From Polyangia bacterium (GTDB lineage: Bacteria; Myxococcota_A; Polyangia; JAHFDS01; DATFWX01), in assembly GCA_035258845.1 (NCBI GenBank), contig DATFWX010000218.1, positions 17,354-81,353 on the forward strand: a DNA stretch of 64,000 nucleotides, given 5' to 3'. Shown here piece by piece: positions 2,806 to 17,314 of the stretch. The notes beneath the pieces are model-generated. The model saw only the letters and a list, made by a program, of their open reading frames with translations, was not told the origin of the DNA and did not search any database. How positions within the stretch are numbered: the stretch's first letter is position 1; the number at the start of each line of letters is the position of its first letter. Both the position numbers and the translations under genes were made by a program.

Positions 2806-4587
2806 TCAAGGCAGCTGGATCTCGCGCACGCGCCGGTTGTAGAAGTCGCCCGCCACGACCCGCCGGCCGCTCACGGCCAGGCCCTCGACGTCAAAGAAAC
2901 GCGCGTCGCAGCCGTTGCCATCCGCGAATCGGATGGTGGTGGCGGTTCGCGCGGCGCCCGCCACCGGATCGGGGAGCGCGCTGCCCGCAGGGAGGAGATT
3001 GAGCGTGAAGCCGTCGTCGCTCATGAACAGCAGGGTGCCGGCGGCATCGACCGCGATGGCGGCCGGATTGCCGCGCGGGCCCAGCACGCTGGCCGCAAGA
3101 CGCGTCGTCACCGTTCCGGTGGTGGTGTCGATCTGCCGAATGCTGTTGCCGCTGAAATCGGTGACGTAGAGCGTGGTTCCATCCAGGGCGAGCCCCGAGG
3201 GCAACATGAAGCGGGCGCCCGTGCCCACGCCGTCGGTCGAGCCGAGCATGCCGTTGCCGGCCAGGGTCGTGGTCACGCCGGCCGGCGTGATGGCGCGAAC
3301 TCGAGCATTGCGCGAGTCGGCCACGTAGACGGTGCCGGCCGCGTCGACCGCAATGCCGAGCAGGCTGAGAAACCGAGCGCCCACTCCGGTGCCGTCCTGG
3401 AAGCCGCACGTGCTCGAGCCCGCGAGCGTCCTTACGGTTGCGTTCGCGTCGAGCGTGATGACGCTGCAGCCGGGGTCGAACAGCGCCACATAGAGCGTGC
3501 CCGCGCCGTTGATCGCGATGCCGGCCGGCGTTGCACCGACCCGGGCGAAGGTGGTGACGTCTCCGCTCGGCGTCACCCGCCGGATCTCCGAGTTGAAGGC
3601 GTCGGCCACGTAGGCGTCGCCGTTTGCCGCCAGTGCCACACCGGCTGGCGATCCGAACGTCGCGGTGGTGGCGTTGCCATCCAGGTTGCCCATGGCGCCG
3701 GTACCGGCCAACGTTCGCACCGAGACCTGCGAGCAGGTCGTGGTCCCGCCGTCAGAATTGGTGCCGCCGTCGGAGTTGGTGCCGCCGTCGGGCGACGGGA
3801 GCGGACACTGATTCTGGCTCGAGCTGAGCGCGGGCGGCGAATCAGCGGCCGGGCCGAACGTCGCTATCGCGAACGGCCGAACTCGGTAGCGGTAGGTCGT
3901 GAGCGCGCACGTCGTCCGGTCGATGAGCTGCATCTCGCCACCGCCGACCGAGGCGAACGGCCGGAAGTCGGTGACGTCACTTGCGCCCGCGAACCCGGGC
4001 ACGCTGGCGCGCTCGATGTCGTAGCGCTCGACGGCCCCGCCGCCACCCGCAAGCTGCCAGGTGACGAGCATGCTGCCGTCGCCTTGTGGGGTGGCGAGGA
4101 CGTGCACGACCGCCGACGGACAACCGAGTGGGCAGAAGATGATGCCATGCTGGCTGAACCCGTCCAGCGACGCCGCCACCGTGTGCGCGGCCGGATCGAC
4201 GGTGGGGACCGAGTCGAGCTGGTAGTGGCCGTCGTCGCGCAGCTTGGCGATCGCGTAGTGCGTATCGTCGAGCGCGGTTCCGTCGGCGCGTACGGTCATC
4301 GTCACCGGTTGCGCGAATGGGAGATGGTCCGGCTCCAGCGCATACCCGACCACGAGCGGCGCCACCGGCGCGACCGGCCGCACCGTGATGGCGGTGTCCG
4401 CGGACAGGGCGCCGGGCGGGAAGTCGAGCACGAGCCGGCCGTCGTCGAGAACGAGCCGGCCGCCGGCGGGGCCGATCACGGGGCCGCCTGCCGGGCTGCT
4501 GCAGGCAACCGGCCCGAGCGCGCACGCGAGCGCGAGCATAAGCGTGAGCGTGAGCGAGCGGGCGACAGTGAGCCAAAGTGATCGCAT
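2806..4587 (-). CDS. NHL-repeat lipoprotein (secreted)
   Basis: Signal peptide with lipobox-like LALACALGPVAC. Repeated NHL-type blades (GIAVDAAGTVYVADSRNARVRAI, LYVTDFSGNSIRQID etc.). GG(TNSD) low-complexity linker. Confidence 0.7.
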   Translation of the reverse strand: MRSLWLTVARSLTLTLMLALACALGPVACSSPAGGPVIGPAGGRLVLDDGRLVLDFPPGALSADTAITVRPVAPVAPLVVGYALEPDHLPFAQPVTMTVRADGTALDDTHYAIAKLRDDGHYQLDSVPTVDPAAHTVAASLDGFSQHGIIFCPLGCPSAVVHVLATPQGDGSMLVTWQLAGGGGAVERYDIERASVPGFAGASDVTDFRPFASVGGGEMQLIDRTTCALTTYRYRVRPFAIATFGPAADSPPALSSSQNQCPLPSPDGGTNSDGGTNSDGGTTTCSQVSVRTLAGTGAMGNLDGNATTATFGSPAGVALAANGDAYVADAFNSEIRRVTPSGDVTTFARVGATPAGIAINGAGTLYVALFDPGCSVITLDANATVRTLAGSSTCGFQDGTGVGARFLSLLGIAVDAAGTVYVADSRNARVRAITPAGVTTTLAGNGMLGSTDGVGTGARFMLPSGLALDGTTLYVTDFSGNSIRQIDTTTGTVTTRLAASVLGPRGNPAAIAVDAAGTLLFMSDDGFTLNLLPAGSALPDPVAGAARTATTIRFADGNGCDARFFDVEGLAVSGRRVVAGDFYNRRVREIQLP

Positions 4588-4930
4588 GCGCGGGGCCCAG
4601 AGCAAGCCGAGGGCCAGCCCGCTGTGCGCTCAGGGCATCGCAAGGGCGCGCTTCCTTTGGCCTGACCCAACCCGGCGCTCTGCCACGTCCCATGAGACGT
4701 CCACGCTCACCCATGAGACAGCTTCGGGGGCGCCAAACCGAACCGCGCGCGCGGGCACAAGTCAACGCGAGCGCGGGCGGGCCGCAGGCCGGCGATCCGG
4801 CTCACTGGACCACGCTGCGCAAGCTGCAGCGCCGGCTACGCGAGTTGCCGGCCTGCCGCAAGGGCCCTCTCTCTAGCGACGAAATCTCGTTACTCCGCCC
4901 TCTTGGCGGTGCTGCAACCGATCGAACCGA

Positions 4931-6247
4931 TTGGCACCCGAGTTGCTTGTCGCTCGCCCGTTGCGAAGCGCTCCCGCATTTGCGCTGGCCATCCTCCTGG
5001 CCATTCCGGCCCCGGCCTGGGCTGGGCCGCCCTCTGGCGCACCGCGCGTGCGCACCCGCAACGGGAGCAGCACACCCCGCGCACGCACGTACTTCGGGTA
5101 TCACGGCAAGGAGGTCCCCCACTACTACCATCCCGAAACCGGCGCGTTTCTCTATCGGCCCCCGCGCCCGCACGTGCTTCCGCTCGACAACGGCGACGAG
5201 CCGCTCCGTTTCGTCCGGCTCAACTTCCCGAGCTCCCAGAATCTGGAGGGGATGTTCCGGGAGGTGCTGACCGATTGGGTCCATGCGTTGACCAAGATCG
5301 GAAGCATGCGGCTCAAAATCCTGGTCAACGAGGGCGATCAGGCTCGGCTCGCCGCGCTGATGCAGGACCTGCCGCCGGGGCTGCGCGCGCGCATCGAACC
5401 GGTCCCGATCGCAGGCGACAACCACGTGCGGCCCTGGCCCCGCGACCCGTCGGTGCTCCTGGCGGGCGGCCGGAAGCTGCTCCTGCCGCGAGCGCGCATG
5501 CTTGGCCACGAGGAGGAGGAGCATGAGCATCCCCAGCGGATCGCGGACTACTTCGGGGTGGTCGAGAAGTACGCGCACGCCGCCGGGTTGCCGCTCGAAC
5601 GCTCGGCCTTCCGGTTCGAAGGCGGGAACATCCTGGTGGGTCGCCGCCACGTCTTCGTCGGCTCGGACATCGTTCAAAATGCCATGGCCGATTACGACAT
5701 CACGGAGGAGGAGGCAGTCGCCGCGCTCTCGCGCGAGTTTGGCAGACCCGTGCTCTCGATTGGCAGGCGTGATGCCCAACACCCGCGCTCCGAGCTACGC
5801 CAGCCCAGACAGCACATCGATCTCGCGATGGCCGTCGTGCGCGATCGCCGGAGCGGCCGGGAGGTTGTCCTGCTGGAATCGCCGAAGCTGGCGCGAGATC
5901 TACTGGGCGATCGCCTAGGGAGCGTTGAACCCGAAGGCGCGCTCTGGCGCGATGATGAGAATTCCGAGGCCGATTTCGATGCGGCCAGGCGGGCCCTGCG
6001 CGGTGAGGGCTACGAAGTCATCGACGTGCCGGGGCTGACCACCGGGTGGGCCAGCTCGCTCAACTATACCAACGCCGTGCTGGCCTCAGGTCACGCAATG
6101 ATTCCACAGCTCGATATCCCCGAGCTCGATGTTTATGCGGCCAACGTCTATCGCCGGCTGGGCTATGAGGTGATCCCGATGCGCTCGGCCCGTCGGTCGC
6201 TCGAGCTCAATGGCGGGCCCCGCTGCCTCGGCGAGCACTGCCGCTAA
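4931..6247 (+). CDS. secreted amidinotransferase-superfamily protein (agmatine/peptidyl-arginine deiminase-like)
   Basis: N-terminal signal peptide. C-terminal ...NYTNAVLASGHAMIPQL... NGGPRCLGEHC resembles the GGGxHC catalytic-Cys end of the Porphyromonas-type deiminase / guanidino-modifying fold. Assignment from motif resemblance only. Confidence 0.45.
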   Translation: MAPELLVARPLRSAPAFALAILLAIPAPAWAGPPSGAPRVRTRNGSSTPRARTYFGYHGKEVPHYYHPETGAFLYRPPRPHVLPLDNGDEPLRFVRLNFPSSQNLEGMFREVLTDWVHALTKIGSMRLKILVNEGDQARLAALMQDLPPGLRARIEPVPIAGDNHVRPWPRDPSVLLAGGRKLLLPRARMLGHEEEEHEHPQRIADYFGVVEKYAHAAGLPLERSAFRFEGGNILVGRRHVFVGSDIVQNAMADYDITEEEAVAALSREFGRPVLSIGRRDAQHPRSELRQPRQHIDLAMAVVRDRRSGREVVLLESPKLARDLLGDRLGSVEPEGALWRDDENSEADFDAARRALRGEGYEVIDVPGLTTGWASSLNYTNAVLASGHAMIPQLDIPELDVYAANVYRRLGYEVIPMRSARRSLELNGGPRCLGEHCR

Positions 6248-6662
6248 CCCTGGGCACTCGGCAACAACTTTCAGGTGGCCGGCGTGGCCAGCGTCTATCT
6301 CGTGATGCTTGGCTGCAGAAGCGATTTGCGGCTCACGAGCGCGGCCACATAGAGGCTGGCCAGAGGGTCCGAGCGCGCGATCACATAGGTTCCGTGCGGC
6401 TCTGCGTCGTGCACGCCCAGCTCAGGTCCACAGCCAGGCGGCACTTGTCGTGCACCGTCGACAACAGGGCGTAACCGGGAGAGAGCGGCCGGCAGTCCCC
6501 AGCCCTGGCTAGTCTAGTCAGGCGCAACCGGGGTGGTCATTGCGAGTCGCCTCGCGGCGACCGCGATCGCGATTAGACGCATAGCGGGGAACCCGGTGGA
6601 GGCGCGGACCGGTGCGGCCGGCGACGCGCGCGGATGTCAAAGTCTGGCCGCGCGGTCGGGTC

Positions 6663-6947
6663 TTACCACAAGCCGTAATAAGCGCAGGCAGGTCCGTTCC
6701 AAGCCGCGTTTGCGGCGTCGTTCGCCACGCTCCACGTGGCGTCGTTCCAATCGCTTACGTTAACACCTGGGGCAAAGTCTTCTCCCGCATTTGCCGCGGC
6801 GCGCCACACCGATTCGGTGCAGGAGTAAGTCGCCAGGTTATCGAACGCCCAGTAGTTCCACACATCTAAACCTTTGCCTCCAACCACGCTCCCGAGCACC
6901 GATGCTTCGATCGAAACCAACCGCGCCTGCTTGTTCTTCTTGTTCAT
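6663..6947 (-). CDS. double-glycine-leader bacteriocin-like peptide precursor (copy 1)
   Basis: MNKKNKQARLVSIEASVLGSVVGG followed by a 70-aa Trp-rich core with 2 Cys. Hydrophobic residues at leader positions -4, -7, -12, -15 and GG at -2/-1 fit the class II / GG-leader consensus. Paralog of 7058..7342. Confidence 0.6.
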   Translation of the reverse strand: MNKKNKQARLVSIEASVLGSVVGGKGLDVWNYWAFDNLATYSCTESVWRAAANAGEDFAPGVNVSDWNDATWSVANDAANAAWNGPACAYYGLW

Positions 6948-6988
6948 AAGATGTCCTCCAGACTCTGCCTCAGCCTGCCAACTGCTTG

Positions 6989-7004
6989 TGCAGCTCGCGT
7001 GCCA
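6989..7004 (-). promoter_or_regulatory. sigma-54-type -24/-12 promoter element (TGGCACGcgagCTGCA) upstream of peptide copy 1
   Basis: In gene orientation, ctcgcctcTGGCACGCGAGCTGCAcaag lies about 50 nt upstream of the ATG. GG and GC are spaced as in the TGGCAC-N5-TTGC consensus. The identical element precedes copy 2. Confidence 0.5.
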
Positions 7005-7057
7005 GAGGCGAGAACGCCCCGTCGGCGAATGTCAACGTCTGGCCGCGCGGTCGGGTC

Positions 7058-7342
7058 TCACCACCAGCCGTAATTGGCGCAGGCAGGTCCGTTCCAAGCC
7101 GCGTATGCGGCGTCGTTCGCCACGCCCCACGTAGCTTCGTTCCAATCGCTTACGTTAACACCTGGGGCAAAGTCTTGTCCTGCATTTGCCCCGGCCTTCC
7201 ACACCGCTTCGTAGCAGGAGTTACTCGCCAGAAAAGCGAACGTCCATTCGTTCCACACATCTAAACCTCGGCCTCCAGCCACGCTCCCGAGCACCGATGC
7301 GTCGATCGAAGCCAACCGCGCCAGCTTGTTCTTCTTTTTCAT
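7058..7342 (-). CDS. double-glycine-leader bacteriocin-like peptide precursor (copy 2)
   Basis: MKKKNKLARLASIDASVLGSVAGG followed by a 70-aa Trp-rich core ending ..NGPACANYGWW. About 75% identical to copy 1. Confidence 0.6.
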   Translation of the reverse strand: MKKKNKLARLASIDASVLGSVAGGRGLDVWNEWTFAFLASNSCYEAVWKAGANAGQDFAPGVNVSDWNEATWGVANDAAYAAWNGPACANYGWW

Positions 7343-7383
7343 GATATGCCCTCAAAGCTCTGCCCTGAGCTGCCAGCCTGAAG

Positions 7384-7399
7384 TGCAGCTCGCGTGCCA
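7384..7399 (-). promoter_or_regulatory. sigma-54-type -24/-12 promoter element upstream of peptide copy 2
   Basis: Same TGGCACGCGAGCTGCA 16-mer as at 6989-7004, in the equivalent position relative to the ATG at 7342. Confidence 0.5.
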
Positions 7400-7452
7400 G
7401 AGGGCGAGAACGCCCGTAGGCGGATGTCAACGTCTGGTCGTGCGGTCGGTTC

Positions 7453-7479
7453 TCACCACCAGCCGTAATTGGCGCAGGC
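7453..7479 (-). pseudogene. 3' remnant (last 8 codons plus stop) of a third GG-leader peptide gene
   Basis: The rc reads ACANYGWW*, identical to the copy 2 C-terminus. The sequence 5' of it (in gene sense) is replaced by unrelated DNA that belongs to the integrase fragment. Confidence 0.5.
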
Positions 7480-8008
7480 ATGGTGTTCGCGATGCGCAGC
7501 AAGGAGCAAAGACGAGGTATCCGGGCGTGCAGCGAATCAACGACACAACGTGCCGAGTGCGGATCAAGTTGCGCGATCCGCGCAGCGGGAAAACGCGGGA
7601 GGTGGACAGGCTCGTCGAGGCGACGAGCGTCAGAGAAGCCGCAAGAAAACGCGCACTGCTCATGTCCGAGAAGCGCGCGGAAAACTCCGAGAGAAATTGG
7701 GGCCTCCGATCAGGGTGGGTATTCCGGTCGGACAACGGAACGCTGCGTGAGCCGAGTTCGCTTCGCAAGGCGTGGCGGGGCAGCCTCAAGGCGGCGAAGA
7801 TCGAGAAGCACTTCACCGTCCACGGGTTGCGGCGCACCTTCAACGACCTCGCAGGGCGTGCAGGCGTCGATGCGGTCGTGACGCGGGCGATCACGGCCAC
7901 GTGACCGAGCAGATGCGCGAGCACGATTCGACGGTCGGTCTGGATGAGAAGCAGGCCGCCGTGGCAAACGTTCTGCGGCTCGTTCCAGCGACGAATGTCG
8001 GGACTTAG
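7469..8008 (+). pseudogene. tyrosine recombinase (phage-type integrase), 5'-truncated and frameshifted
   Basis: Only the C-terminal catalytic half is present (...[50 protein letters not shown] / [15 protein letters not shown]...). The H-x-x-R and GH boxes are split between two frames near 7895. No N-terminal domain or start codon. Ends 63 nt before the tRNA-Gly. Confidence 0.6.
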
Positions 8009-8070
8009 GTGGAGGCGCGAGGGATCGGCCTTGACACACGCCGATGATTCGCCAATGCTCTCCCAAGTTT

Positions 8071-8143
8071 GCGGGCTTAGCTCAGTTGGTAGAGCGTCGG
8101 CTTCCCAAGCCGAAGGTCGCCGGTTCGAGACCGGTAGCCCGCT
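8071..8143 (+). tRNA. tRNA-Gly (anticodon CCC)
   Basis: Hand-folded cloverleaf. Acceptor stem GCGGGCT/AGCCCGC (7 bp). D arm GCTC-AGTTGGTAG-GAGC. Anticodon stem TCGGC/GCCGA with loop TTCCCAA, giving anticodon CCC. T arm GCCGG-TTCGAGA-CCGGT. Discriminator T. No encoded CCA. Confidence 0.85.
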
Positions 8144-8875
8144 CCGCTGCGTGAGGCCCCGGGTTGACGCAACCTGGGCACCGCTCCAGGCGCCGGCCGC
8201 GCCCACGCCACCATCCGCCGTGGTCCTCGCTGTCGCGTGTCGACCCGTCGTCCAGCGGGGGTCCACCGTCCTTCTGATTCCCGGTGATCGACGCCGATTC
8301 GCATCCGGTCCAGCAGCCCGTCGCCATCGCCAGGCCGCAAAGAAGATTCGGCAAGCAGGGCCGAGGCATCTGCTTTCTGCCGTCAAGGCTAGCAGGAACC
8401 ACACCCACAGTCAGCGCCGCGGGCGGAGCGTCCGCTATGGGAAGCTGCGATCGTGTGGGCGGGGATGAGGGCGGCGGCGTACTTCAGCTCGTTGCTGATC
8501 TTCTTGCGTTCCTGCTCGAGCCGCTCGCGCCACTCCCGTTCCCGAGGAAAATCCCTCTGGTGAACGCCGCACCAGCCAGAACGAGGGGAATAGACGGGTC
8601 TTCATGAACGCGCGAGAGCATGATATATGTCACCTCTCGATCAGCTGCAATTGATGGCGTGACGGGGGCGTGGAGTGCGACATTCCTGTCCGATCGGCCT
8701 CGTTGGCCAGACGAAACGAGTGACGAGCTGCCCTGGAGGGTTCGATCAGACGTCCGGAACTCTGCTCGGATCACCCGAGCGTCTTTGTGGACGCCACGAT
8801 GGCCGAGCAGCAAGGGCTTCCCTGCGCAGAACTCTGCCCTCGCGGTCCTAACCATTTAGGGATGATTCCCATCGC

Positions 8876-9355
8876 GTGAAGACAGAAGACGTCGCAAGGG
8901 CATACAGGATGCACGGCTATCTGGTCTTGCGACGAGCGCGACGTGTGCTGGGCAACGAGAACGAGGCCGAGGACGTGCTCCAGGAGGTGTTTCTTTCCCT
9001 GCTCGACAAGCCGGCGCAATTCGAAGGTCGGAGCGCGCTGACCACCTGGCTGTATAGTGCGACGACGCACCTTTGCCTGAATCGACTGCGCAATCAACGC
9101 ACGCGGCGCGCGATCTTGGAGCGCGCCGCGCCCCCGTTAGCGTCCCACCCGGCGCCAGGGGCCGAGACCATGGTGGCGCTTCGATTGCTGCTCGCCCAGC
9201 TGCCCGACGCGGTCGCGCGTGTAGCTGTCTACTACTATTGCGACGAGATGACCCAGGACGAGATCGCACGCGTCATGGGCTGCTCGCGCCGCCACGTCGG
9301 CAACCTTCTCGAGCGGCTCAGCGCTGCTCATCAAGACGCGGGAGGATGCGTATGA
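8876..9355 (+). CDS. ECF (sigma-70 family group 4) RNA polymerase sigma factor
   Basis: Region 2 (DVLQEVFLSLL.. TWLYSATTHLCLNRLR) and region 4 HTH (EMTQDEIARVMGCSRRHVGNLLERL). The stop overlaps the start of the anti-sigma gene. Confidence 0.85.
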   Translation: MKTEDVARAYRMHGYLVLRRARRVLGNENEAEDVLQEVFLSLLDKPAQFEGRSALTTWLYSATTHLCLNRLRNQRTRRAILERAAPPLASHPAPGAETMVALRLLLAQLPDAVARVAVYYYCDEMTQDEIARVMGCSRRHVGNLLERLSAAHQDAGGCV

Positions 9356-10089
9356 GCCAGCCGTACCAGCGATCGCGCCCTCCCTCGTGCCCCTCCGATT
9401 TGCGTCTCGACCACTTCCTCCTCGGCGAGCTGGAGGAGCAGGAGACAGCCAGCCTCCGCGCTCATCTGGATAGCTGTTCACACTGCACCGCCCGCCTGGC
9501 CGCCATGGACTCGGAGCGCGAACAGTTTGGCAGACAGTTTGGCGCATGGGTGCCCAGCAAGCCGCGTGGAAGACGATTTCGATGGCGGTTGTGGCCGGTA
9601 TTGTCGCTCGCGGCGGCTGCTGCCGCGATCTTGCTGGTGGTCGAGCTGCGTCCCGAGCGCGGAGGCTTGCCCACCATCCGTGGAAAAGGGCAGAGTCGAC
9701 TGGAGTTCTATGTCCGCCACCAGGGAGTGGTCCGCAGAGGCTCGACGGGAGAAGCGGTGCTCGCAGGTGACGCACTCCGGTTTGCCTACTCCAGCGGCGC
9801 ACCCGGATACCTTGCCGTCATCAGCCTGGACGGCCGTGGACGCGCCACAGTCTACTATCCGCCCCAATCCACCATGATCCCGATCGCGGCCGGTGACGAC
9901 ATCCTCCTACCGGCGAGCACGATCTTGGACGACGCCCCCGGACCAGAGCAGATCTGGGGCGTGTTCTGCCGAGTACCGCTCGATCTCGAGCCGATCCGCG
10001 CTCGCGTGGAAAAAACACGAAGGGCGCCGACCCTGCCCGATGGCTGTCAAATCGACGCAACGTCGATCGAAAAGCGCACGTCGCGATGA
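9346..10089 (+). CDS. zinc-finger (ZAS-type) transmembrane anti-sigma factor
   Basis: N-terminal HLDSCSHC (HxxxCxxC) motif, then one TM helix (WPVLSLAAAAAAILLVV) and a periplasmic domain. Its start overlaps the sigma gene and its stop overlaps the next gene's ATG (ATGA). Confidence 0.7.
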   Translation: MRMSQPYQRSRPPSCPSDLRLDHFLLGELEEQETASLRAHLDSCSHCTARLAAMDSEREQFGRQFGAWVPSKPRGRRFRWRLWPVLSLAAAAAAILLVVELRPERGGLPTIRGKGQSRLEFYVRHQGVVRRGSTGEAVLAGDALRFAYSSGAPGYLAVISLDGRGRATVYYPPQSTMIPIAAGDDILLPASTILDDAPGPEQIWGVFCRVPLDLEPIRARVEKTRRAPTLPDGCQIDATSIEKRTSR

Positions 10090-11663
10090 GCCCTCACCGT
10101 CTTACGGTCACCCTACTCCCGGTCGCGGCCCTGGCTGTGTTCGAAGTGGCGGCGCAGGCGCGCGTGGAGCGCTACGCCGTACTGGTCGGCAACAATCACG
10201 GCACCGCGCAAGAGACGCCCCTTCGCTATGCCGAGGACGACGCGGTTCGCCTGAAGGATGTGCTCGAGCAGCTGGGGGGTTTTCCCGCAGAGAACCTGGT
10301 CCTTATCCGCAATGGAAGCGCCGACTCGCTCACGCGCGCTTTGATTGCGACCAATGATCGAATTCGCGCAACCACGAGCGGCGGCGGAAGAGCGGTCCTG
10401 TTCGTCTATTATTCGGGACATGCGGACGCTGAGGCGCTTCATCTGGGGGCGAGCCGCCTCGAGCTCAGGGAGCTCGAGCAGCTGGTTCGCGGCTCTGCGG
10501 CCGGCTTTCGCATCCTGGTGCTCGACGCTTGCCGTTCCGGCCGGCTCACCCACGTCAAGGGGGGAAAGCTGGCGCCACCTTTCGACGTCGAGCTCGAACG
10601 CACACTCGCCAGCGAGGGAACCGTTTTCCTGACCGCCAGCGCGGCAGGCGAGGACGCGCAGGAATCCGATGAGCTCGCCGCCTCGTTCTTTACCCACTAC
10701 TTCGTCTCGGGGCTGCTGGGTGCGGCGGATCAGGACGAAAATGGCGCGGTCACGCTCGACGAAGCGTACCGGTACGCCTACGAGAACACGCTCCGATCGA
10801 GCAGTCGAACGGCAGGGAACGTGCAGCACCCGACCTTCGAATACGACCTTCGGGGGCAAGGAACTGTCGTGGTGACCATGCCCGAGCGGGGACGGCCCGA
10901 CCGTGCAACCCTGTCGTTCCCGCCTGGACGGTTCTTTCTGGTCCTACAAGGCGATGCGGACGGGCGCGTGGTAGCTGAGCTGGGGGCGCGCGAGCGCACG
11001 CGGCGGCTCAGCGTTCGACCCGGCCGATACTTTCTTCGCAGCCGAGGTCCGACCAGCCTCCTCGAAGGAACCGTCACCGCGTCGGCAGGGCGGGAAACCC
11101 TCATCGATGAAAGCCGGCTGGTACGGGTCGAATACGGCCGGCTCGTCCGCAAGGGCGAGGGCATCCGCCGAGTGGCGCACGGACTCGAGGTCGGATACCA
11201 GGTAAGGACGCCACTCTACGAGGGAGCTTTTCTCTGCCAGGGCGGTTTCGTGGGCTACGTCCTCGAGCTCGCGGCCTTGAGCATCGAACCAAGGCTCGCG
11301 TTCTGTCGGGATACAATCGACGGCGTGAACATCGCAACCACCGCGTACGACGCTGATCTCGAGCTGCGGCTGACCCATGCTTGGGACATTGGGCGCTGGA
11401 CGCTGTCGCTGGGAGGCGGCGGCGGACTGGGCCTTCTGTATGAAACCTTCGTCATCCGGGGCAAGGCACCCGATCGGGCCAGTGCCGCCGCCCAGCTCGC
11501 GGGCGAAATTGGGGTTGGGCGTGATCTGGCGCGCCACCTTTACTGGCAATGCCGTGCTGAGGGGCTGCTGTTCCTCTTTGATCGCCAGGATGCCGAGGGC
11601 CGCGTCACGTTTGGATCTGCTCTTGCGGTCCGCGGCAGCCTGGGCCTGGGATGGCATTTTTGA
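10086..11663 (+). CDS. secreted caspase-domain (peptidase C14) protein with C-terminal beta-barrel-like domain
   Basis: Signal peptide. Caspase His/Cys dyad context (VLFVYYSGHADAEAL ... FRILVLDACRSGRL). The C-terminal ~270 aa show alternating hydrophobic beta-strand patterns and end ...SLGLGWHF, an aromatic-terminal outer-membrane beta-barrel signature. Confidence 0.65.
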   Translation: MSPHRLTVTLLPVAALAVFEVAAQARVERYAVLVGNNHGTAQETPLRYAEDDAVRLKDVLEQLGGFPAENLVLIRNGSADSLTRALIATNDRIRATTSGGGRAVLFVYYSGHADAEALHLGASRLELRELEQLVRGSAAGFRILVLDACRSGRLTHVKGGKLAPPFDVELERTLASEGTVFLTASAAGEDAQESDELAASFFTHYFVSGLLGAADQDENGAVTLDEAYRYAYENTLRSSSRTAGNVQHPTFEYDLRGQGTVVVTMPERGRPDRATLSFPPGRFFLVLQGDADGRVVAELGARERTRRLSVRPGRYFLRSRGPTSLLEGTVTASAGRETLIDESRLVRVEYGRLVRKGEGIRRVAHGLEVGYQVRTPLYEGAFLCQGGFVGYVLELAALSIEPRLAFCRDTIDGVNIATTAYDADLELRLTHAWDIGRWTLSLGGGGGLGLLYETFVIRGKAPDRASAAAQLAGEIGVGRDLARHLYWQCRAEGLLFLFDRQDAEGRVTFGSALAVRGSLGLGWHF

Positions 11664-11722
11664 TCTCCATGCCCAAAGGGAGGGATGGCGGTCCAAAGAG
11701 AAAAACGTTTCGGGAGGACGCC

Positions 11723-12748
11723 ATGCACGTTCGATGGAAGACGGTCCCGGTCATGCTCCTTTGTGGAGGCATCGCATGCGACGCGCAGACCGATCGGAGC
11801 TACCGGGGAGAAGTGTTGGCCACCATCCACGGCCGGATCACGAAAGCAGACGTGCCGACGCCGCCCGAGGTACGCGTCGCCCTGGCTTGGTATCAGCCTC
11901 AGGCGAGCTCATCGCAATGGCACCTGGTCACGCAAGATCAGGGGGTGCGCGCCCAGTTTCCAGCCAGTTTCACCTTGGACGTGACAGTTCTGCCGCCGGA
12001 GTCTGCATTCACTCATCCGAGCATGCATACCATCCAGACTTTCAATCTCGATCCCAACACCCGCTGGGCTTCTGGATTCCTGGTTGTCTACGAAGATGGG
12101 AACGGCAACCAGAGCCTGGATATCGTCTCGTCTGCCGACCAGACTTCACCCGATCGAATCCTCGCCGTGCCGTTCGATTACAACATCGAATATCTGGAAG
12201 GCACGCCATTCCCCAATACTGGGCTTGGAAAATACTTTCCCCACAGCGTGGGCTTCCAGCTGGTCAGACTGGCGCCCAACCAGGATCAACGCCCCGAGGA
12301 CTGCGAAGACCCGGTCGGTACCCACTATTACACCGCCTGCGATCCTGTGCCGGTTGGACCTCAAGAAGATTTGGCCGCGTCGACCGAGATCCCGATCGAG
12401 CTGACCGGATCGCCTGAACTGCAACATTACGCTTGCGACAGGTACTTCGGTGCAGGGGAGTGGGCGGATTGGTTTGTCTACGAGACCAAGAACAACATTC
12501 GGGATGGGTCCGAGCTCTGCGATCGGCCCGACTGCCCGTTTTGTGACAATCTCTTGGATGACAGTATGAGGTGTCCGATCGATCTTCCCCCGTCTGGCGC
12601 TCCGGTGACGTGCAGCCAGGATCGGCGAGCCTACGTCTACAAAACCTGCCAAATGGATGCTTCGCTGTGTGGAACCACAGTCTGCCATTTTGGTCACTGG
12701 GGCCTTGCTTCTACCGATCCGATTCCGGCGGGATGGCCTTGCCTCTGA
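11723..12748 (+). CDS. Cys-rich secreted lipoprotein (hypothetical)
   Basis: MHVRWKTVPVMLLCGGIAC signal/lipobox. About 14 Cys concentrated in the C-terminal half (CDRPDCPFCDN, CQMDASLCGTTVCHF). Third codon positions are noticeably less G/C-rich than in neighbouring genes. Confidence 0.5.
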   Translation: MHVRWKTVPVMLLCGGIACDAQTDRSYRGEVLATIHGRITKADVPTPPEVRVALAWYQPQASSSQWHLVTQDQGVRAQFPASFTLDVTVLPPESAFTHPSMHTIQTFNLDPNTRWASGFLVVYEDGNGNQSLDIVSSADQTSPDRILAVPFDYNIEYLEGTPFPNTGLGKYFPHSVGFQLVRLAPNQDQRPEDCEDPVGTHYYTACDPVPVGPQEDLAASTEIPIELTGSPELQHYACDRYFGAGEWADWFVYETKNNIRDGSELCDRPDCPFCDNLLDDSMRCPIDLPPSGAPVTCSQDRRAYVYKTCQMDASLCGTTVCHFGHWGLASTDPIPAGWPCL

Positions 12749-13070: not shown

Positions 13071-13310
13071 TCAGCCGATCCCCCAGCCGCCGTTCCCGTT
13101 TTCGTCCGGTACGACGTCAGTCGGGTCGAAATTGAACCACGGCCCATCGATAGGCAAATTCTCAGGCCACCACTCGCCATTTAGGTTTCTGTAGCCCCAG
13201 TCGCCGTCGATTTCGACGCCGCCGCCGTAAGGGTACAGGTCTGCACCCCCGCGTACGTTTTGGAGCTCCGAGACCGAAAGCTCTTGTTGCGTCCACGTCG
13301 TTTCTTTCAT
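13071..13310 (-). CDS. double-glycine-leader, Gly/Trp-rich bacteriocin-like peptide precursor
   Basis: MKETTWTQQELSVSELQNVRGG matches the LSxxELxxVxGG leader consensus, with GG immediately before a 57-aa Gly/Trp/Asp-rich core (GGGVEIDGDWGYRNLNGEWW..GNGGWGIG). Strong RBS GGAGGGAG 7 nt upstream of the ATG. Confidence 0.6.
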   Translation of the reverse strand: MKETTWTQQELSVSELQNVRGGADLYPYGGGVEIDGDWGYRNLNGEWWPENLPIDGPWFNFDPTDVVPDENGNGGWGIG

Positions 13311-15087: not shown

Positions 15088-15756
15088 ATGATGAGCGCCC
15101 CCCTTCGTGAAGCACGGCTGGCCGGCCACTCCGGTCGCCGGCCCGGACGCGCGCGCTTGGCCGTCGCGGCAGGGCTCGTCGCGCTGCTCGCGTCTGCCTC
15201 GGCGTCCGCCGGCCAGGTCCGGGTGGTGCACAGCATTTCCGGGCGTGTACGAGTTCACTCGTCGAGCGTCTACGGCTCCCCCGATGAGGCCAACCGGATC
15301 CAGCGAAGCCTCGAACGTCTCAACGGTGTCGAGTCCGTCGAGACCAATGCGCTGACGGGCAGCGTGCTGGTTCGATACCGGCCTCAGGAGGTCACCGAGA
15401 CGCGCATCGTGCGTGCGCTCCGCGGCAGTCGGGCCCCATCCAAATCGGCCGCGCCACCGCAGGATCAACCCACCCAGCCCGACGGCCTCCCGACCAAGGT
15501 GGCTCACGCTGCCGTTCGAGCGGTCGCTCGCGAGACCGCCGAGCGGATGGCGATGAAAACGGGGGCAAAGGCTTTGGAGCGAATCATCGGTGAGGAAGCA
15601 GCCGAAGCCATCATTCCAGGGGTTGGTGTGGCGCTGACGGCCTTGGATCTCGTCTCGAGCGTGCGCAGCACTTCGCAAGCGAAGGCGGATCCGGTGCCGC
15701 CGTGGCTCAACTTGGGGGTCAAGCTCCTCGCGACCGCGCTCGTAGCGGCGTTCTGA
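15088..15756 (+). CDS. secreted hypothetical protein with HMA-like (ferredoxin-fold) domain lacking CxxC
   Basis: Signal peptide. The segment VHSISGRVRVHSSSVYGSPDEANRIQRSLERLNGVESVETNALTGSVLVRY follows the beta-alpha-beta-beta-alpha-beta pattern of heavy-metal-associated domains but has no metal-binding cysteines. Confidence 0.4.
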   Translation: MMSAPLREARLAGHSGRRPGRARLAVAAGLVALLASASASAGQVRVVHSISGRVRVHSSSVYGSPDEANRIQRSLERLNGVESVETNALTGSVLVRYRPQEVTETRIVRALRGSRAPSKSAAPPQDQPTQPDGLPTKVAHAAVRAVARETAERMAMKTGAKALERIIGEEAAEAIIPGVGVALTALDLVSSVRSTSQAKADPVPPWLNLGVKLLATALVAAF

Positions 15757-16104: not shown

Positions 16105-17205
16105 CTAGCTCCGGATCCCGATGGGCGGGCAGCCGAAGATGGCGTGCACGTCGGTGATGCTGCCGCTCTGCAGCATGTTGCACCAGGACCCGTAGAACGT
16201 GATGGACATGTTGCCGGCACCAAAGTCCCAGCCATTCATGTGCGTCGTGTCGCGCGGCACAATCGTTCCGTTGGCCGTGACGCGAACCATGTTGGGATCG
16301 GGCGGCTGCATGGTCAGTTGGAACGTGCACGACACGACCTGACCCGTGATCGCGTTGATCGCATTCACGAAGTCGGACTGGTTGTTGACCGAGTAGTAGT
16401 AGGGCGGACCGCCCGCGCGCGCCTCACCGCCGTTTTGCGCCATCTGATTGAGCACGCCGTCGGCCATGCTGCCGGCCGAGATTCCGATGACGAAGGTACG
16501 GATGCCCATGTTGGCGGCATCGGTGACCGCCTGCTCGGCCCCTGCGTTGTCGTTGACCCCGAAGGAGCAGTTGGGCTCTCCGTCGGTCGACAGGACGATG
16601 TATCTGGGATTGCTGTCGGCAAGGCCCAGCAGGTACGAGGTGGCGTCGCGCACCGCGTGCTGCGTAGGCGTGGCCCCTCCAGGCGAAGTGCCCGCAATCG
16701 CCGACTGCACCGCACCCGCGTTGTTCGGGCCCACCGGCACGCTGGGCGTCGACGAGGTCCCGCACAGGATGTCGCTCGGGAAGAACACGAGCCCCCATCG
16801 AATCTGCGCCTGCGACATCACGACCGACATGCTGAGCGCGGTTGTGATCTGCTGCCACTTGGAAGCCCCGCCGCCCGACGGCGGATCATTCATCGATCCC
16901 GATTTGTCCTGCACGATGAGCAGGTCGGGCGGCAGCCGCTGTAGCGTGAAGTCCTGCATGCCGCAGCTCATGGCGTCGGGCGAGTTGTCGATGCCGCCGC
17001 CGCCGCCCGAGCCCCCGCTTCCGCCGAAACCTCCGGAGCCGCCGGCTCCACCGCCGCTGCCTGCGGTGCCGCCGCCGCCACCTCGGCCGCCGCTCCCGCC
17101 GCCGCTCGCGCCCCCGCTCCCGCTCCCGGTTCCGGTCGGTCCGCAGCCCAAACCCAAAAGTGCGATGCTTGCGCTGATCAGAAAGCTCACTGTCGCGCGG
17201 CGCAT
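16105..17205 (-). CDS. VWA-domain lipoprotein with Gly/Ser-rich linker
   Basis: Lipobox LLGLGC. Long GGSGG linker. MIDAS-type motif LLIVQDKSGSM. RBS GGAGGTG upstream of the ATG at 17203-17205. Confidence 0.65.
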   Translation of the reverse strand: MRRATVSFLISASIALLGLGCGPTGTGSGSGGASGGGSGGRGGGGGTAGSGGGAGGSGGFGGSGGSGGGGGIDNSPDAMSCGMQDFTLQRLPPDLLIVQDKSGSMNDPPSGGGASKWQQITTALSMSVVMSQAQIRWGLVFFPSDILCGTSSTPSVPVGPNNAGAVQSAIAGTSPGGATPTQHAVRDATSYLLGLADSNPRYIVLSTDGEPNCSFGVNDNAGAEQAVTDAANMGIRTFVIGISAGSMADGVLNQMAQNGGEARAGGPPYYYSVNNQSDFVNAINAITGQVVSCTFQLTMQPPDPNMVRVTANGTIVPRDTTHMNGWDFGAGNMSITFYGSWCNMLQSGSITDVHAIFGCPPIGIRS

Positions 17206-17314
17206 GGTCACCTCCTGCGCTGCCTGACCCCAGCGCGCATCATACGCGTCGACGCCGGGGTTGCAAAGCATCGTCCGACGGAAATGTGCTGATTCCGCGC
17301 TCGGACGACTCTGA

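Follow-up and report, generated by a model that had tools for sequence, protein, structure and literature searches.

Several known systems release a sigma factor of the extracytoplasmic function (ECF) type by cutting its anti-sigma factor. In the DegS-RseA-RpoE and FecA-FecR-FecI (Prc/RseP) systems, an extracytoplasmic signal leads to a site-1 cut of a single-pass anti-sigma factor, followed by RseP and release of the sigma factor, and in the FecA systems an outer membrane protein is the third operon-linked component. A similar set of parts is encoded by a four-gene cassette at positions 8876 to 12748 of a 64,000-nucleotide stretch (here called the window) of contig DATFWX010000218.1 from a Polyangia bacterium. 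The cassette consists of genes for an ECF sigma factor, a zinc-type anti-sigma (ZAS) factor, a caspase-family protein with a predicted outer membrane barrel, and a probable lipoprotein. We propose that the caspase-family protein may be the dedicated site-1 protease of the anti-sigma factor in a trans-envelope switch, a proposal to which we give an even chance and whose topology, specificity, cleavage step, signal, and regulon we infer. Whereas DegS and Prc are serine proteases, the site-1 protease of the cassette would be a caspase-fold cysteine protease. The cassette also differs from Fec in that its outer membrane partner is a predicted eight-stranded barrel and not a TonB-dependent transducer, and in that its anti-sigma factor is of the ZAS/DUF4384 type and not of the RseA or FecR type. 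The marks of cell-surface signaling, a TonB-dependent receptor and FecR domains, were absent from the Pfam and NCBIfam matches of the four cassette proteins.

Two described systems come closer because they join a caspase-fold protease to an anti-sigma factor. DdvS-DdvA (PMC6061681, PMC11506125) resembles the cassette in having an ECF sigma factor, a single-pass ZAS anti-sigma factor, and a periplasmic caspase-fold His-Cys module in the Myxococcota. The periplasmic CHAT domain of Myxococcus xanthus DdvA has been proposed to self-clip the juxtamembrane linker, after which RseP acts (PMC11506125), and a cut in this linker is the proposed site-1 step ahead of RseP in both systems. However, the protease of DdvA is a TPR-CHAT module that is fused to the anti-sigma factor (about 1,000 amino acids [aa] in all) and works in trans inside a dimer, whereas the cassette protease is a separate C14 protein predicted to sit in the outer membrane and the 245-aa anti-sigma factor has ZAS, transmembrane (TM), and DUF4384 parts only, which sets it apart from the DdvA type. 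The island that DdvS governs is of CBASS/CRISPR type, and the window locus lacks genes of this kind. In the type III-E craspase, the anti-sigma-like protein Csx30 is cut by Csx29, which frees the ECF factor CASP-sigma (PMC10028731; bioRxiv 10.1101/2022.08.17.504292). There, too, a caspase-fold protease acts on an anti-sigma-like holder of an ECF sigma factor, and one class of Csx30 C-terminal domain is DUF4384. Unlike the cassette, the craspase is cytoplasmic and RNA guided, uses CHAT and not C14, has no membrane or outer membrane part, and cuts after Met or Leu; no Cas7-11, Csx29, or Csx30/Csx31 was found among the neighboring window genes that were scanned. CHAT proteins have also been mentioned in the context of ECF54. 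Three differences separate the cassette from the protease-gated ECF analogues: the C14 enzyme, a predicted outer membrane barrel of its own, and the division of protease and anti-sigma factor between coupled genes.

As an enzyme, the cassette protease resembles the orthocaspases and metacaspases MaOC1, AtMC4/AtMC9, and Yca1 in its catalytic His and Cys, in two S1 aspartates from which Arg/Lys specificity would follow, and in a likely Ca2+ dependence and likely processing of itself at a basic residue. These enzymes are cytoplasmic, the bacterial ones have no defined physiological substrate, and none has been reported with an outer membrane barrel fusion or with coupling to a sigma/anti-sigma pair, although DUF4384 also occurs in some orthocaspases and pseudo-orthocaspases.

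The gene order itself has been seen before. The initial annotation took the arrangement for one that had not been described, but a 2012 survey (Asplund-Samuelsson et al. 2012, PMC3501461) already lists operons of sigma factor, TM protein, metacaspase, and lipoprotein in M. xanthus. Four of the five metacaspases of M. xanthus DK1622 lie in operons with ECF sigma factors. Its supplementary table gives MXAN_4949-4952 and MXAN_6681-6684 as ECF sigma factor, TM hypothetical protein, metacaspase, and lipoprotein, while MXAN_7214-7216 and MXAN_7454-7456 have no lipoprotein entry, and the same operon structure was noted in Anaeromyxobacter, Haliangium, and Sorangium. The window locus shares this gene order and almost certainly belongs to the same set of operons. 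The survey tabulated the Pfam domains of the neighbors and did not recognize the anti-sigma factor, DUF4384, the barrel, the EF-hand loop, or the R-x-K-G motif discussed below, and it offered no mechanism beyond speculation on cell death. Our literature searches turned up no functional study of the M. xanthus sigma/metacaspase loci.

A conserved sigma/anti-sigma/caspase core

All four genes lie on the forward (+) strand, and open reading frames (ORFs) and Pfam matches at these coordinates agree with the identities first assigned to them. The sigma factor gene (8876 to 9355; 159 aa) encodes a protein that matches Sigma70_r2 (59.1 bits, 3.8e-16) and Sigma70_r4_2 (31.6 bits, 1.3e-7), both above the Pfam cut-offs, and that scores 75 bits against the sigma70-ECF model TIGR02937 (cut-off, 42.9); it reached no equivalog-level NCBIfam model. 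With its 159 aa the protein is too short to include sigma-3, and by sequence criteria it is an ECF (group 4) sigma-70 factor. The second gene (9352 to 10089; 245 aa, single pass) encodes a protein with a zf-HC2 match of 23.8 bits (Pfam cut-off, 22.2) and a zinc-type anti-sigma motif, H38-x3-C42-x2-C45, that can be read directly at 9463 to 9486. The motif is present in 72 of 74 syntenic anti-sigma factors, and judged by these features the protein is a ZAS anti-sigma factor, predicted to bind zinc and the sigma factor. Its TM segment is the hydrophobic run L80-V97 (9589 to 9642; LWPVLSLAAAAAAILLVV), in which A89 is invariant and A88, A90, and A91 are almost so in the family alignment. The third gene (10086 to 11663; 525 aa) encodes the caspase-family protein, a C14 member of metacaspase/orthocaspase-like type, and the fourth (11723 to 12748; 341 aa), whose ORF is open from 11651, encodes the probable lipoprotein.

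The first three genes appear to be translationally coupled, as had been claimed, since both of their junctions are ATGA overlaps. The TGA stop codon of the sigma factor gene (9353 to 9355) overlaps the ATG of the anti-sigma gene (9352 to 9354), which is preceded by a GGGAGG Shine-Dalgarno sequence, and the stop codon of the anti-sigma gene (10087 to 10089) overlaps the ATG of the caspase gene (10086 to 10088). A search of the window for a second copy of the module found none.

Conservation of this order was assessed in 80 loci that were fetched with the caspase protein alone from 185,579 species genomes and then analyzed with tblastn and for ORFs. These loci span Polyangia, Nannocystaceae, Labilithrix, Anaeromyxobacter, Corallococcus, and Bradymonadia. 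At 74 of the 80, a sigma factor homolog is encoded directly upstream of the caspase, and at 73 an anti-sigma-sized ORF separates the two, so that the synteny proposed for the relatives extends across the phylum and recurs more often than chance would allow. Overlaps of 4 nucleotides (nt) occur between the sigma and anti-sigma genes at about 59 loci and between the anti-sigma and caspase genes at about 49, and the three closest metagenomic relatives have an identical layout in independent gene calls. None of the three findings that the initial annotation named as counting against it was made, since the dyad is invariant, the genes overlap, and the synteny is conserved.

Some genomes carry at least two paralogous modules, among them the metagenome-assembled genomes (MAGs) DATEOF01 (loci L003/L009) and JAYUUT01 (loci L037/L062), which fits the four reported in M. 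xanthus. The window itself comes from a Polyangia (Myxococcota) MAG, and an anti-sigma protein identical to its own is annotated "Polyangia bacterium." Typical myxobacterial modules also occur in "Comamonas sp. KCTC 72670" (locus L080), where the synteny is Corallococcus/Myxococcus-like, and in MAGs labeled Enterobacterales (loci L045, L049, L059, and L063). The taxonomy given for these records is probably mistaken. In the DdvA paper, "one Comamonas species" is named as the sole nonmyxobacterial carrier of DdvA-like anti-sigma factors.

The caspase-family protein and its predicted envelope location

The caspase-family protein matches Peptidase_C14 with 38.5 bits (Pfam cut-off, 21.4). Of 8,000 candidates scored in a homolog search, 2,358 were counted at E <= 0.001, and every match with a named organism came from the Myxococcota. 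An AlphaFold2 model built with 60 homologs in the alignment (mean predicted local distance difference test score [pLDDT], 84), together with Foldseek comparisons, divides the protein into a caspase domain, a beta-sandwich, and an eight-stranded barrel, in line with the suggestion of a caspase fold followed by a further C-terminal domain. The catalytic domain (residues 27 to 250; 10164 to 10835) has a caspase/hemoglobinase fold, with Foldseek matches to metacaspase 9, caspase-3/-6, and legumain. A single-sequence phmmer search with this protein against the PDB gave no matches, and the family profile recovered two metacaspases there, metacaspase-4 of Arabidopsis and metacaspase-1 of yeast or Candida. 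In the profile alignment, LRYAEDDA corresponds to LRGC(I/V)ND, YYSGHA to HYSGHG, and LDACRSG to FDSCHSG of the metacaspases, and the dyad and the two S1-pocket aspartates (D52 and D147) are therefore retained. The His/Cys dyad that the initial annotation read from YSGHADAE and LVLDACRSG is present as H112 (10419 to 10421) and C149 (10530 to 10532), and these two residues, along with D52 and D147, are invariant across the 60 sequences. Taken with the modeled fold, this sequence evidence identifies the protein as a Peptidase C14 member with a His-Cys dyad. It is related to NCBIfam NF047832, "caspase, EACC1-associated type" (73.9 bits), but falls short of the curated threshold of 140 and is not a member.

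Metacaspases and orthocaspases cut after Arg or Lys, a specificity that is set by the S1-pocket aspartates, and a Lys/Arg specificity of the cassette protein would be consistent with its conserved residues. Within the catalytic domain lies an EF-hand-type loop, D215-Q-D-E-N-G-A-V-T-L-D-E226 (10728 to 10763), in which D215, E226, and L224 are invariant among the 60 sequences and Asp/Asn 219, G220, and V222 are almost so; EF-hand_5 matches occur in 9 of the 60 homologs. Putative Ca2+ binding by this loop fits the Ca2+ dependence that is typical of metacaspases.

The remainder of the protein points to an envelope location. A plausible Sec-type signal peptide occupies residues 1 to 25 (10086 to 10160), with a hydrophobic core at residues 6 to 23, a modeled helix at 5 to 22, and a likely cleavage site at A-Q-A|R. 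The middle beta-sandwich (residues ~260 to 350; 10863 to 11135) has strands of high pLDDT between 262 and 349 and no Pfam match. The C-terminal part (residues 364 to 525; 11175 to 11660) is modeled as eight long strands, also of high pLDDT, between 364 and 524, and ends in ...GLGWHF. The top Foldseek matches of this part in the PDB were the OmpA TM domain, Ail (with the highest TM-score, 0.73), OmpX, NspA, and OmpW, with E values down to 8.6e-8. OMP_b-brl matches occur in 6 of the 60 homologs, and 56 of the 60 end in L, W, or F, as in the beta-signal of outer membrane proteins. On its predicted structure, the C terminus is a small eight-stranded outer membrane beta-barrel. The protein had been annotated as a secreted caspase; the signal peptide and the extracytoplasmic location stand, but with its last ~160 residues predicted to form an outer membrane barrel the protein would be more than secreted. 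Both termini of small even-stranded barrels are periplasmic, and the protease domain should therefore hang under the outer membrane; on the model, the caspase domain is most likely tethered in the periplasm beneath it.

This predicted location bears on the role that the initial annotation foresaw for the locus, a regulated-proteolysis or cell-death circuit. Regulated proteolysis gains support, by inference, from the motif described in the next section, whereas nothing was found in support of cell death. An executioner of cell death or developmental lysis, in which killing or lysis of the cell would follow once the sigma factor had switched on an envelope caspase, seems to us highly improbable. 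It would suit the enrichment of caspase homologs in developmentally complex bacteria, which is circumstantial, and a link to developmental autolysis of M. xanthus was a speculation of the 2012 survey (PMC3501461). However, a protease tethered in the periplasm, as the model suggests, would be away from cytoplasmic targets, and the literature that we found ties no M. xanthus ortholog to lysis. PADLOC detected no defense or abortive-infection system, and its single match was weak and to a generic caspase entry (PDLC02987; 23 bits, E = 9.8e-6). The module is also present in Anaeromyxobacter and Bradymonadia, from which fruiting-body development has not been described.

A motif shared by protease and anti-sigma factor

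The evidence that links the protease to the anti-sigma factor is a short motif, R-x-K-G, that occurs in both. In the caspase protein it belongs to the segment just past the catalytic Cys; about 70 of the 80 loci read D-x-C-x-S-G-x-x-T-R-x-K-G-(G/A) here, and 77 have the K-G pair. The window version, T155-H-V-K158-G-G160 (10548 to 10565), lies 6 to 11 residues past the catalytic Cys, and T155, K158, G159, and G160 are invariant in the 60 sequences. The loop falls inside a low-confidence segment of the model (residues 152 to 177), the place where autoprocessing of caspases and metacaspases typically occurs, and is a candidate autoprocessing or substrate-mimic site. In the anti-sigma factor the motif is juxtamembrane, at R110-G-K112-G113 (9679 to 9690), with K112|G113 as the candidate site-1 cleavage site. 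Across 32 aligned anti-sigma factors, the only invariant periplasmic residues are K112, G113, and D193, the first two set in a juxtamembrane consensus T-R-T-K-G-G, and in 61 of 74 loci an R-x-K-G follows the TM segment by 1 to 54 residues (mostly 5 to 27). The presence of the same motif in a loop of a putatively Lys/Arg-specific protease and in its operon partner suggests that the anti-sigma factor is the substrate, and the signal peptide, the barrel, and the hydrophobic/aromatic C terminus would place the protease in the compartment of the anti-sigma DUF4384 domain.

In the AlphaFold2 model of the anti-sigma factor (pLDDT, 85), which has cytoplasmic helices at residues 16 to 63 and a confident beta-sandwich of ~130 residues (116 to 245; 9697 to 10086; pLDDT >90), K112-G113 lies in the coil immediately before the first beta-strand (116 to 123). 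The match of the sandwich to DUF4384 (PF14326) is weak, at 16.5 bits against a cut-off of 27. PF14326 is precomputed in 15 of 39 anti-sigma homologs, which also carry PF13490, and NCBI names several of them "DUF4384 domain-containing"; by homology, the domain is a DUF4384 member without passing on its own score. Its relatives number 3,555 representative clusters at E <= 1e-3, and a fold search gave generic beta-sandwich matches only, all at E > 1e-3, so that no function can be read from the fold. The motif is not a requirement of the DUF4384 fold, since a nonorthologous protein of 758 aa (P0190) has no R-x-K-G before any of its four DUF4384 repeats. The architecture of that protein is unusual for the DUF4384 family, since it has two anti-sigma-like segments in tandem at its N terminus, a single TM segment, and four repeats that resemble DUF4384. 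A common homology of the anti-sigma DUF4384 domain, the middle sandwich of the caspase protein, and the domain of gene 4 was considered and rejected (hhalign probabilities, <2%).

These features can be joined in a tentative scheme. The ECF sigma factor would be held at the inner membrane by the ZAS single-pass anti-sigma factor, with its DUF4384 sandwich in the periplasm. A signal would activate the protease, sensed perhaps together with the flanking lipoprotein, in which a DxNxNG loop occurs as well, and/or through Ca2+ or the status of the outer membrane. The protease would process its own T-R-x-K|G-G loop and would cut the anti-sigma factor at the juxtamembrane R-x-K112|G113. This cut would remove DUF4384 and leave a stub of ~15 residues for RseP-type intramembrane cleavage, after which the sigma factor would be freed; site-1 cleavage of RseA leaves a similar stub for RseP. 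In this full form, with an outer-membrane-tethered, Ca2+-gated, metacaspase-type protease dedicated to the site-1 cut of a ZAS/DUF4384 anti-sigma factor at a conserved R-x-K|G near the inner membrane, we put the chance of the scheme at somewhat less than even.

A number of points weigh against it. The motif match is only 3 to 4 residues long and could be a coincidence or reflect another shared partner, the two window motifs differ at their flanks (T-H-V-K-G-G in the caspase and I-R-G-K-G-Q in the anti-sigma factor), and no covariation of the two motifs across loci was evident by eye. The membrane region of the anti-sigma model, including L80-V97, is of low confidence, and we take the caspase domain to face the periplasm on the basis of the general topology of eight-stranded barrels. 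We also searched 58 to 71 sigma-upstream regions for a promoter motif by enumerating bipartite 4-mers, scanning for GAAC-N10-19-GTC, and looking for enriched 5-mers, and no family-wide motif rose above shuffled controls. No conserved sigma-dependent promoter was found that would point to autoregulation or cotranscription. Finally, the M. xanthus mutant in the putatively orthologous ECF gene, MXAN_7214, is listed in a strain-library table, in the accessible part of which no phenotype is singled out.

The shared motif could also be that of an inhibitor or pseudosubstrate. The R-x-K-G and DUF4384 of the anti-sigma factor might dock in the caspase active site, much as securin does with separase, so that the anti-sigma factor would control the protease or the two would sequester each other. 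Translational coupling, which implies stoichiometric production of the partners, would suit such a complex, and control of separase by securin and of CHAT proteins by bound partners is discussed in PMC11506125. However, a Lys-Gly bond in an exposed coil beside a membrane anchor looks like a substrate, and DUF4384 shows no inhibitor-like feature, with one weak match to a Bacillus subtilis proteinase inhibitor (E = 0.014) among the generic sandwiches. We consider this arrangement improbable.

A further possibility is that the caspase is not part of the sensing pathway at all. The pair would then sense another signal through DUF4384, and the barrel-bearing caspase and the lipoprotein would be cotranscribed outputs for envelope remodeling or degradation. 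Operons of ECF sigma factors often include members of their own regulon, and gene 4 behaves much as accessory cargo would, since the lipoprotein partner shifts position and is absent or unrecognizable in about half of the loci. Its conserved N-terminal domain of ~200 aa is encoded at 37 of the 80 loci, immediately before the sigma factor gene or immediately after the caspase gene, and unrelated-looking lipoproteins take these positions at other loci. With the three genes constant and the gene 4-like partner variable, the core of the module consists of the three genes, and a variable lipoprotein is its partner. In addition, ECF25 has DUF4384 anti-sigma factors for which the accessible part of the ECF classification reports no caspase neighbor. 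Against passive cargo, the linkage is near obligate and its overlaps are conserved across the phylum, DUF4384 recurs in fusion or association with proteases of the caspase fold, and most of the few invariant periplasmic residues of the anti-sigma factor copy the loop motif of the protease. We regard the cargo arrangement as rather unlikely.

Gene 4 encodes a probable lipoprotein without Pfam or NCBIfam matches, for which 11 homologs were available. A lipobox was defined as [LVI][ASTVI][GAS]C ending the signal peptide; that of the window protein, G-I-A-C19, is noncanonical at position -3, whereas homologs have canonical lipoboxes (A-A-C-G/D), the aligned ones showing A-A-A-C and T-A-C-G. Both the ~14 Cys and the atypical codon usage that had been noted for this gene were recovered. 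Of its 14 Cys residues, 2 lie within the signal peptide, including the lipobox Cys19, and 12 in the Cys-rich C-terminal half (12302 to 12742), which is common to few relatives. Its GC content at third codon positions (GC3) is 0.67, compared with 0.73 to 0.76 for the sigma, anti-sigma, and caspase genes and 0.77 to 0.91 for the flanking genes that were measured. The conserved N-terminal domain carries a YED-x-NGNG-x-LD loop at 12095 to 12121.

To our knowledge, the role of bacterial caspase homologs has long been an open question, and almost none has a known substrate. The cassette yields a specific prediction that can be tested, namely, a protease and a K|G residue pair in a defined partner, and M. 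xanthus, a genetically tractable model, has four copies of it. If the site-1 proposal is correct, it would supply a defined physiological substrate and a signaling role for a bacterial C14 homolog, which our searches did not find reported. It would also add a new class, the caspase-fold cysteine protease, to the few site-1 proteases of anti-sigma factors, one that spans both membranes and is present in several copies per myxobacterial genome, and DUF4384 would be a sensor domain that is recognized or removed by the protease. The split form would then join the fused DdvA and the cytoplasmic craspase in a recurring partnership of caspase fold, anti-sigma factor, and ECF sigma factor. If the proposal is wrong, the locus would still represent a clearly delimited family of operons found throughout the phylum.

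Upstream region and genomic neighborhood

Two copies of GAACTCTGC lie upstream of the sigma factor gene. The first (8757 to 8765, +) is a -35-like GGAAC element, and the second (8829 to 8837, +), 47 nt upstream of the sigma GTG, is a candidate ECF-type -35 element. They are the only copies in 64 kb, where 0.59 would be expected in the whole window, and both are within 120 nt of the sigma start. They may be promoter elements, although they are atypically spaced from any CGTC or GTC element. A Bradymonadaceae locus (L058) has a similar CAGAACTCTG-N7-(G/T)GTC at -53, and an upstream motif of this kind is common to the window and this locus only. The first copy overlaps a terminator-like hairpin (8763 to 8781, +; TGCTCGG-ATCAC-CCGAGCG, followed by TCTTTGTGG to 8790) that lies ~90 nt upstream of the sigma start; the closest feature upstream of the hairpin on the + strand is a tRNA.

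In the ECF classification (Casas-Pastor et al. 2021), the accessible portions describe ECF216 as a Myxococcales-only group with a ZAS anti-sigma factor at +1, "two EF-hands" in its context, and no conserved promoter. The window sigma factor is compatible with this description, though its membership is unproven. In the accessible portions of the supplements, anti-sigma factors with ZAS plus DUF4384 are mentioned solely for ECF25, and the terms "Caspase" and "Peptidase_C14" do not occur; peptides from the sigma factors of relatives were likewise absent from the accessible sequence tables.

The cassette lies in a stretch of lower GC3 (0.65 to 0.76 from ~6.5 to 13.5 kb, compared with 0.77 to 0.91 for the measured genes on either side). 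Just ahead of it, the segment from 7326 to 8145 holds the remnant of a truncated tyrosine recombinase (Phage_integrase, C-terminal part only; E = 5e-5) followed by a tRNA-Gly(CCC) at 8071 to 8145. The integrase remnant, the tRNA, and the low GC3 together suggest an old integration hotspot or island.

Small genes with double-glycine leaders flank the cassette. On one side, a 395-bp tandem repeat (6623 to 7480) consists of two full copies and the first 68 bp of a third, and each full copy holds one gene for a 94-aa peptide (6663 to 6947 and 7058 to 7342, both on the - strand). The two peptides are 77% identical, with a Lys-rich N terminus, a double-glycine leader LGSV(V/A)GG|K/R, a Trp/Asn/Ala-rich core with two Cys, and no Pfam match, and by sequence they look like bacteriocin-type precursors. 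On the other side, just downstream of the cassette, a small ORF (13071 to 13310, -) encodes a leader of double-glycine type (...SELQNVRGG|ADLYPYGGG...) ahead of a core rich in Trp, Gly, and Asn, also without a Pfam match. A "bacteriocin" prediction in a genome-mining table for MXAN_4951-4960 of M. xanthus, a range that starts with the metacaspase gene of one sigma/metacaspase operon, parallels the peptide genes beside the window cassette, and this may be a coincidence.

Such surroundings raise the possibility of an island-borne regulator of flanking bacteriocin-like or defense genes, comparable to DdvS-DdvA and its defense island. The cassette adjoins the tRNA-Gly and the integrase remnant in the low-GC3 stretch, peptide genes with double-glycine leaders lie on both sides of it, and the predicted bacteriocin cluster of M. 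xanthus starts at a gene of a metacaspase operon. However, the genes around the constant three-gene core differ greatly from one of the 80 loci to the next, and the peptide genes share no promoter motif with the sigma factor gene. We judge regulation of an island to be very unlikely.

Farther out, the window encodes an NHL-repeat protein (2806 to 4605, -), a Porphyromonas-type peptidyl-arginine deiminase (4931 to 6247, +; a weak match, below the cut-off), a protein with an HMA_2 heavy-metal-associated domain (15088 to 15756, +), and a VWA-domain protein (16105 to 17271, -), none of which is conserved beside the module at other loci. In one relative of P0005, on a 208-kb contig of JGI 3300047160, the module is adjoined by an opposite-strand Pkinase+FGE-sulfatase gene and then by a separate DUF4384 gene, a pair that echoes the reported co-occurrence of DUF4384 and kinases (PMC6426788).

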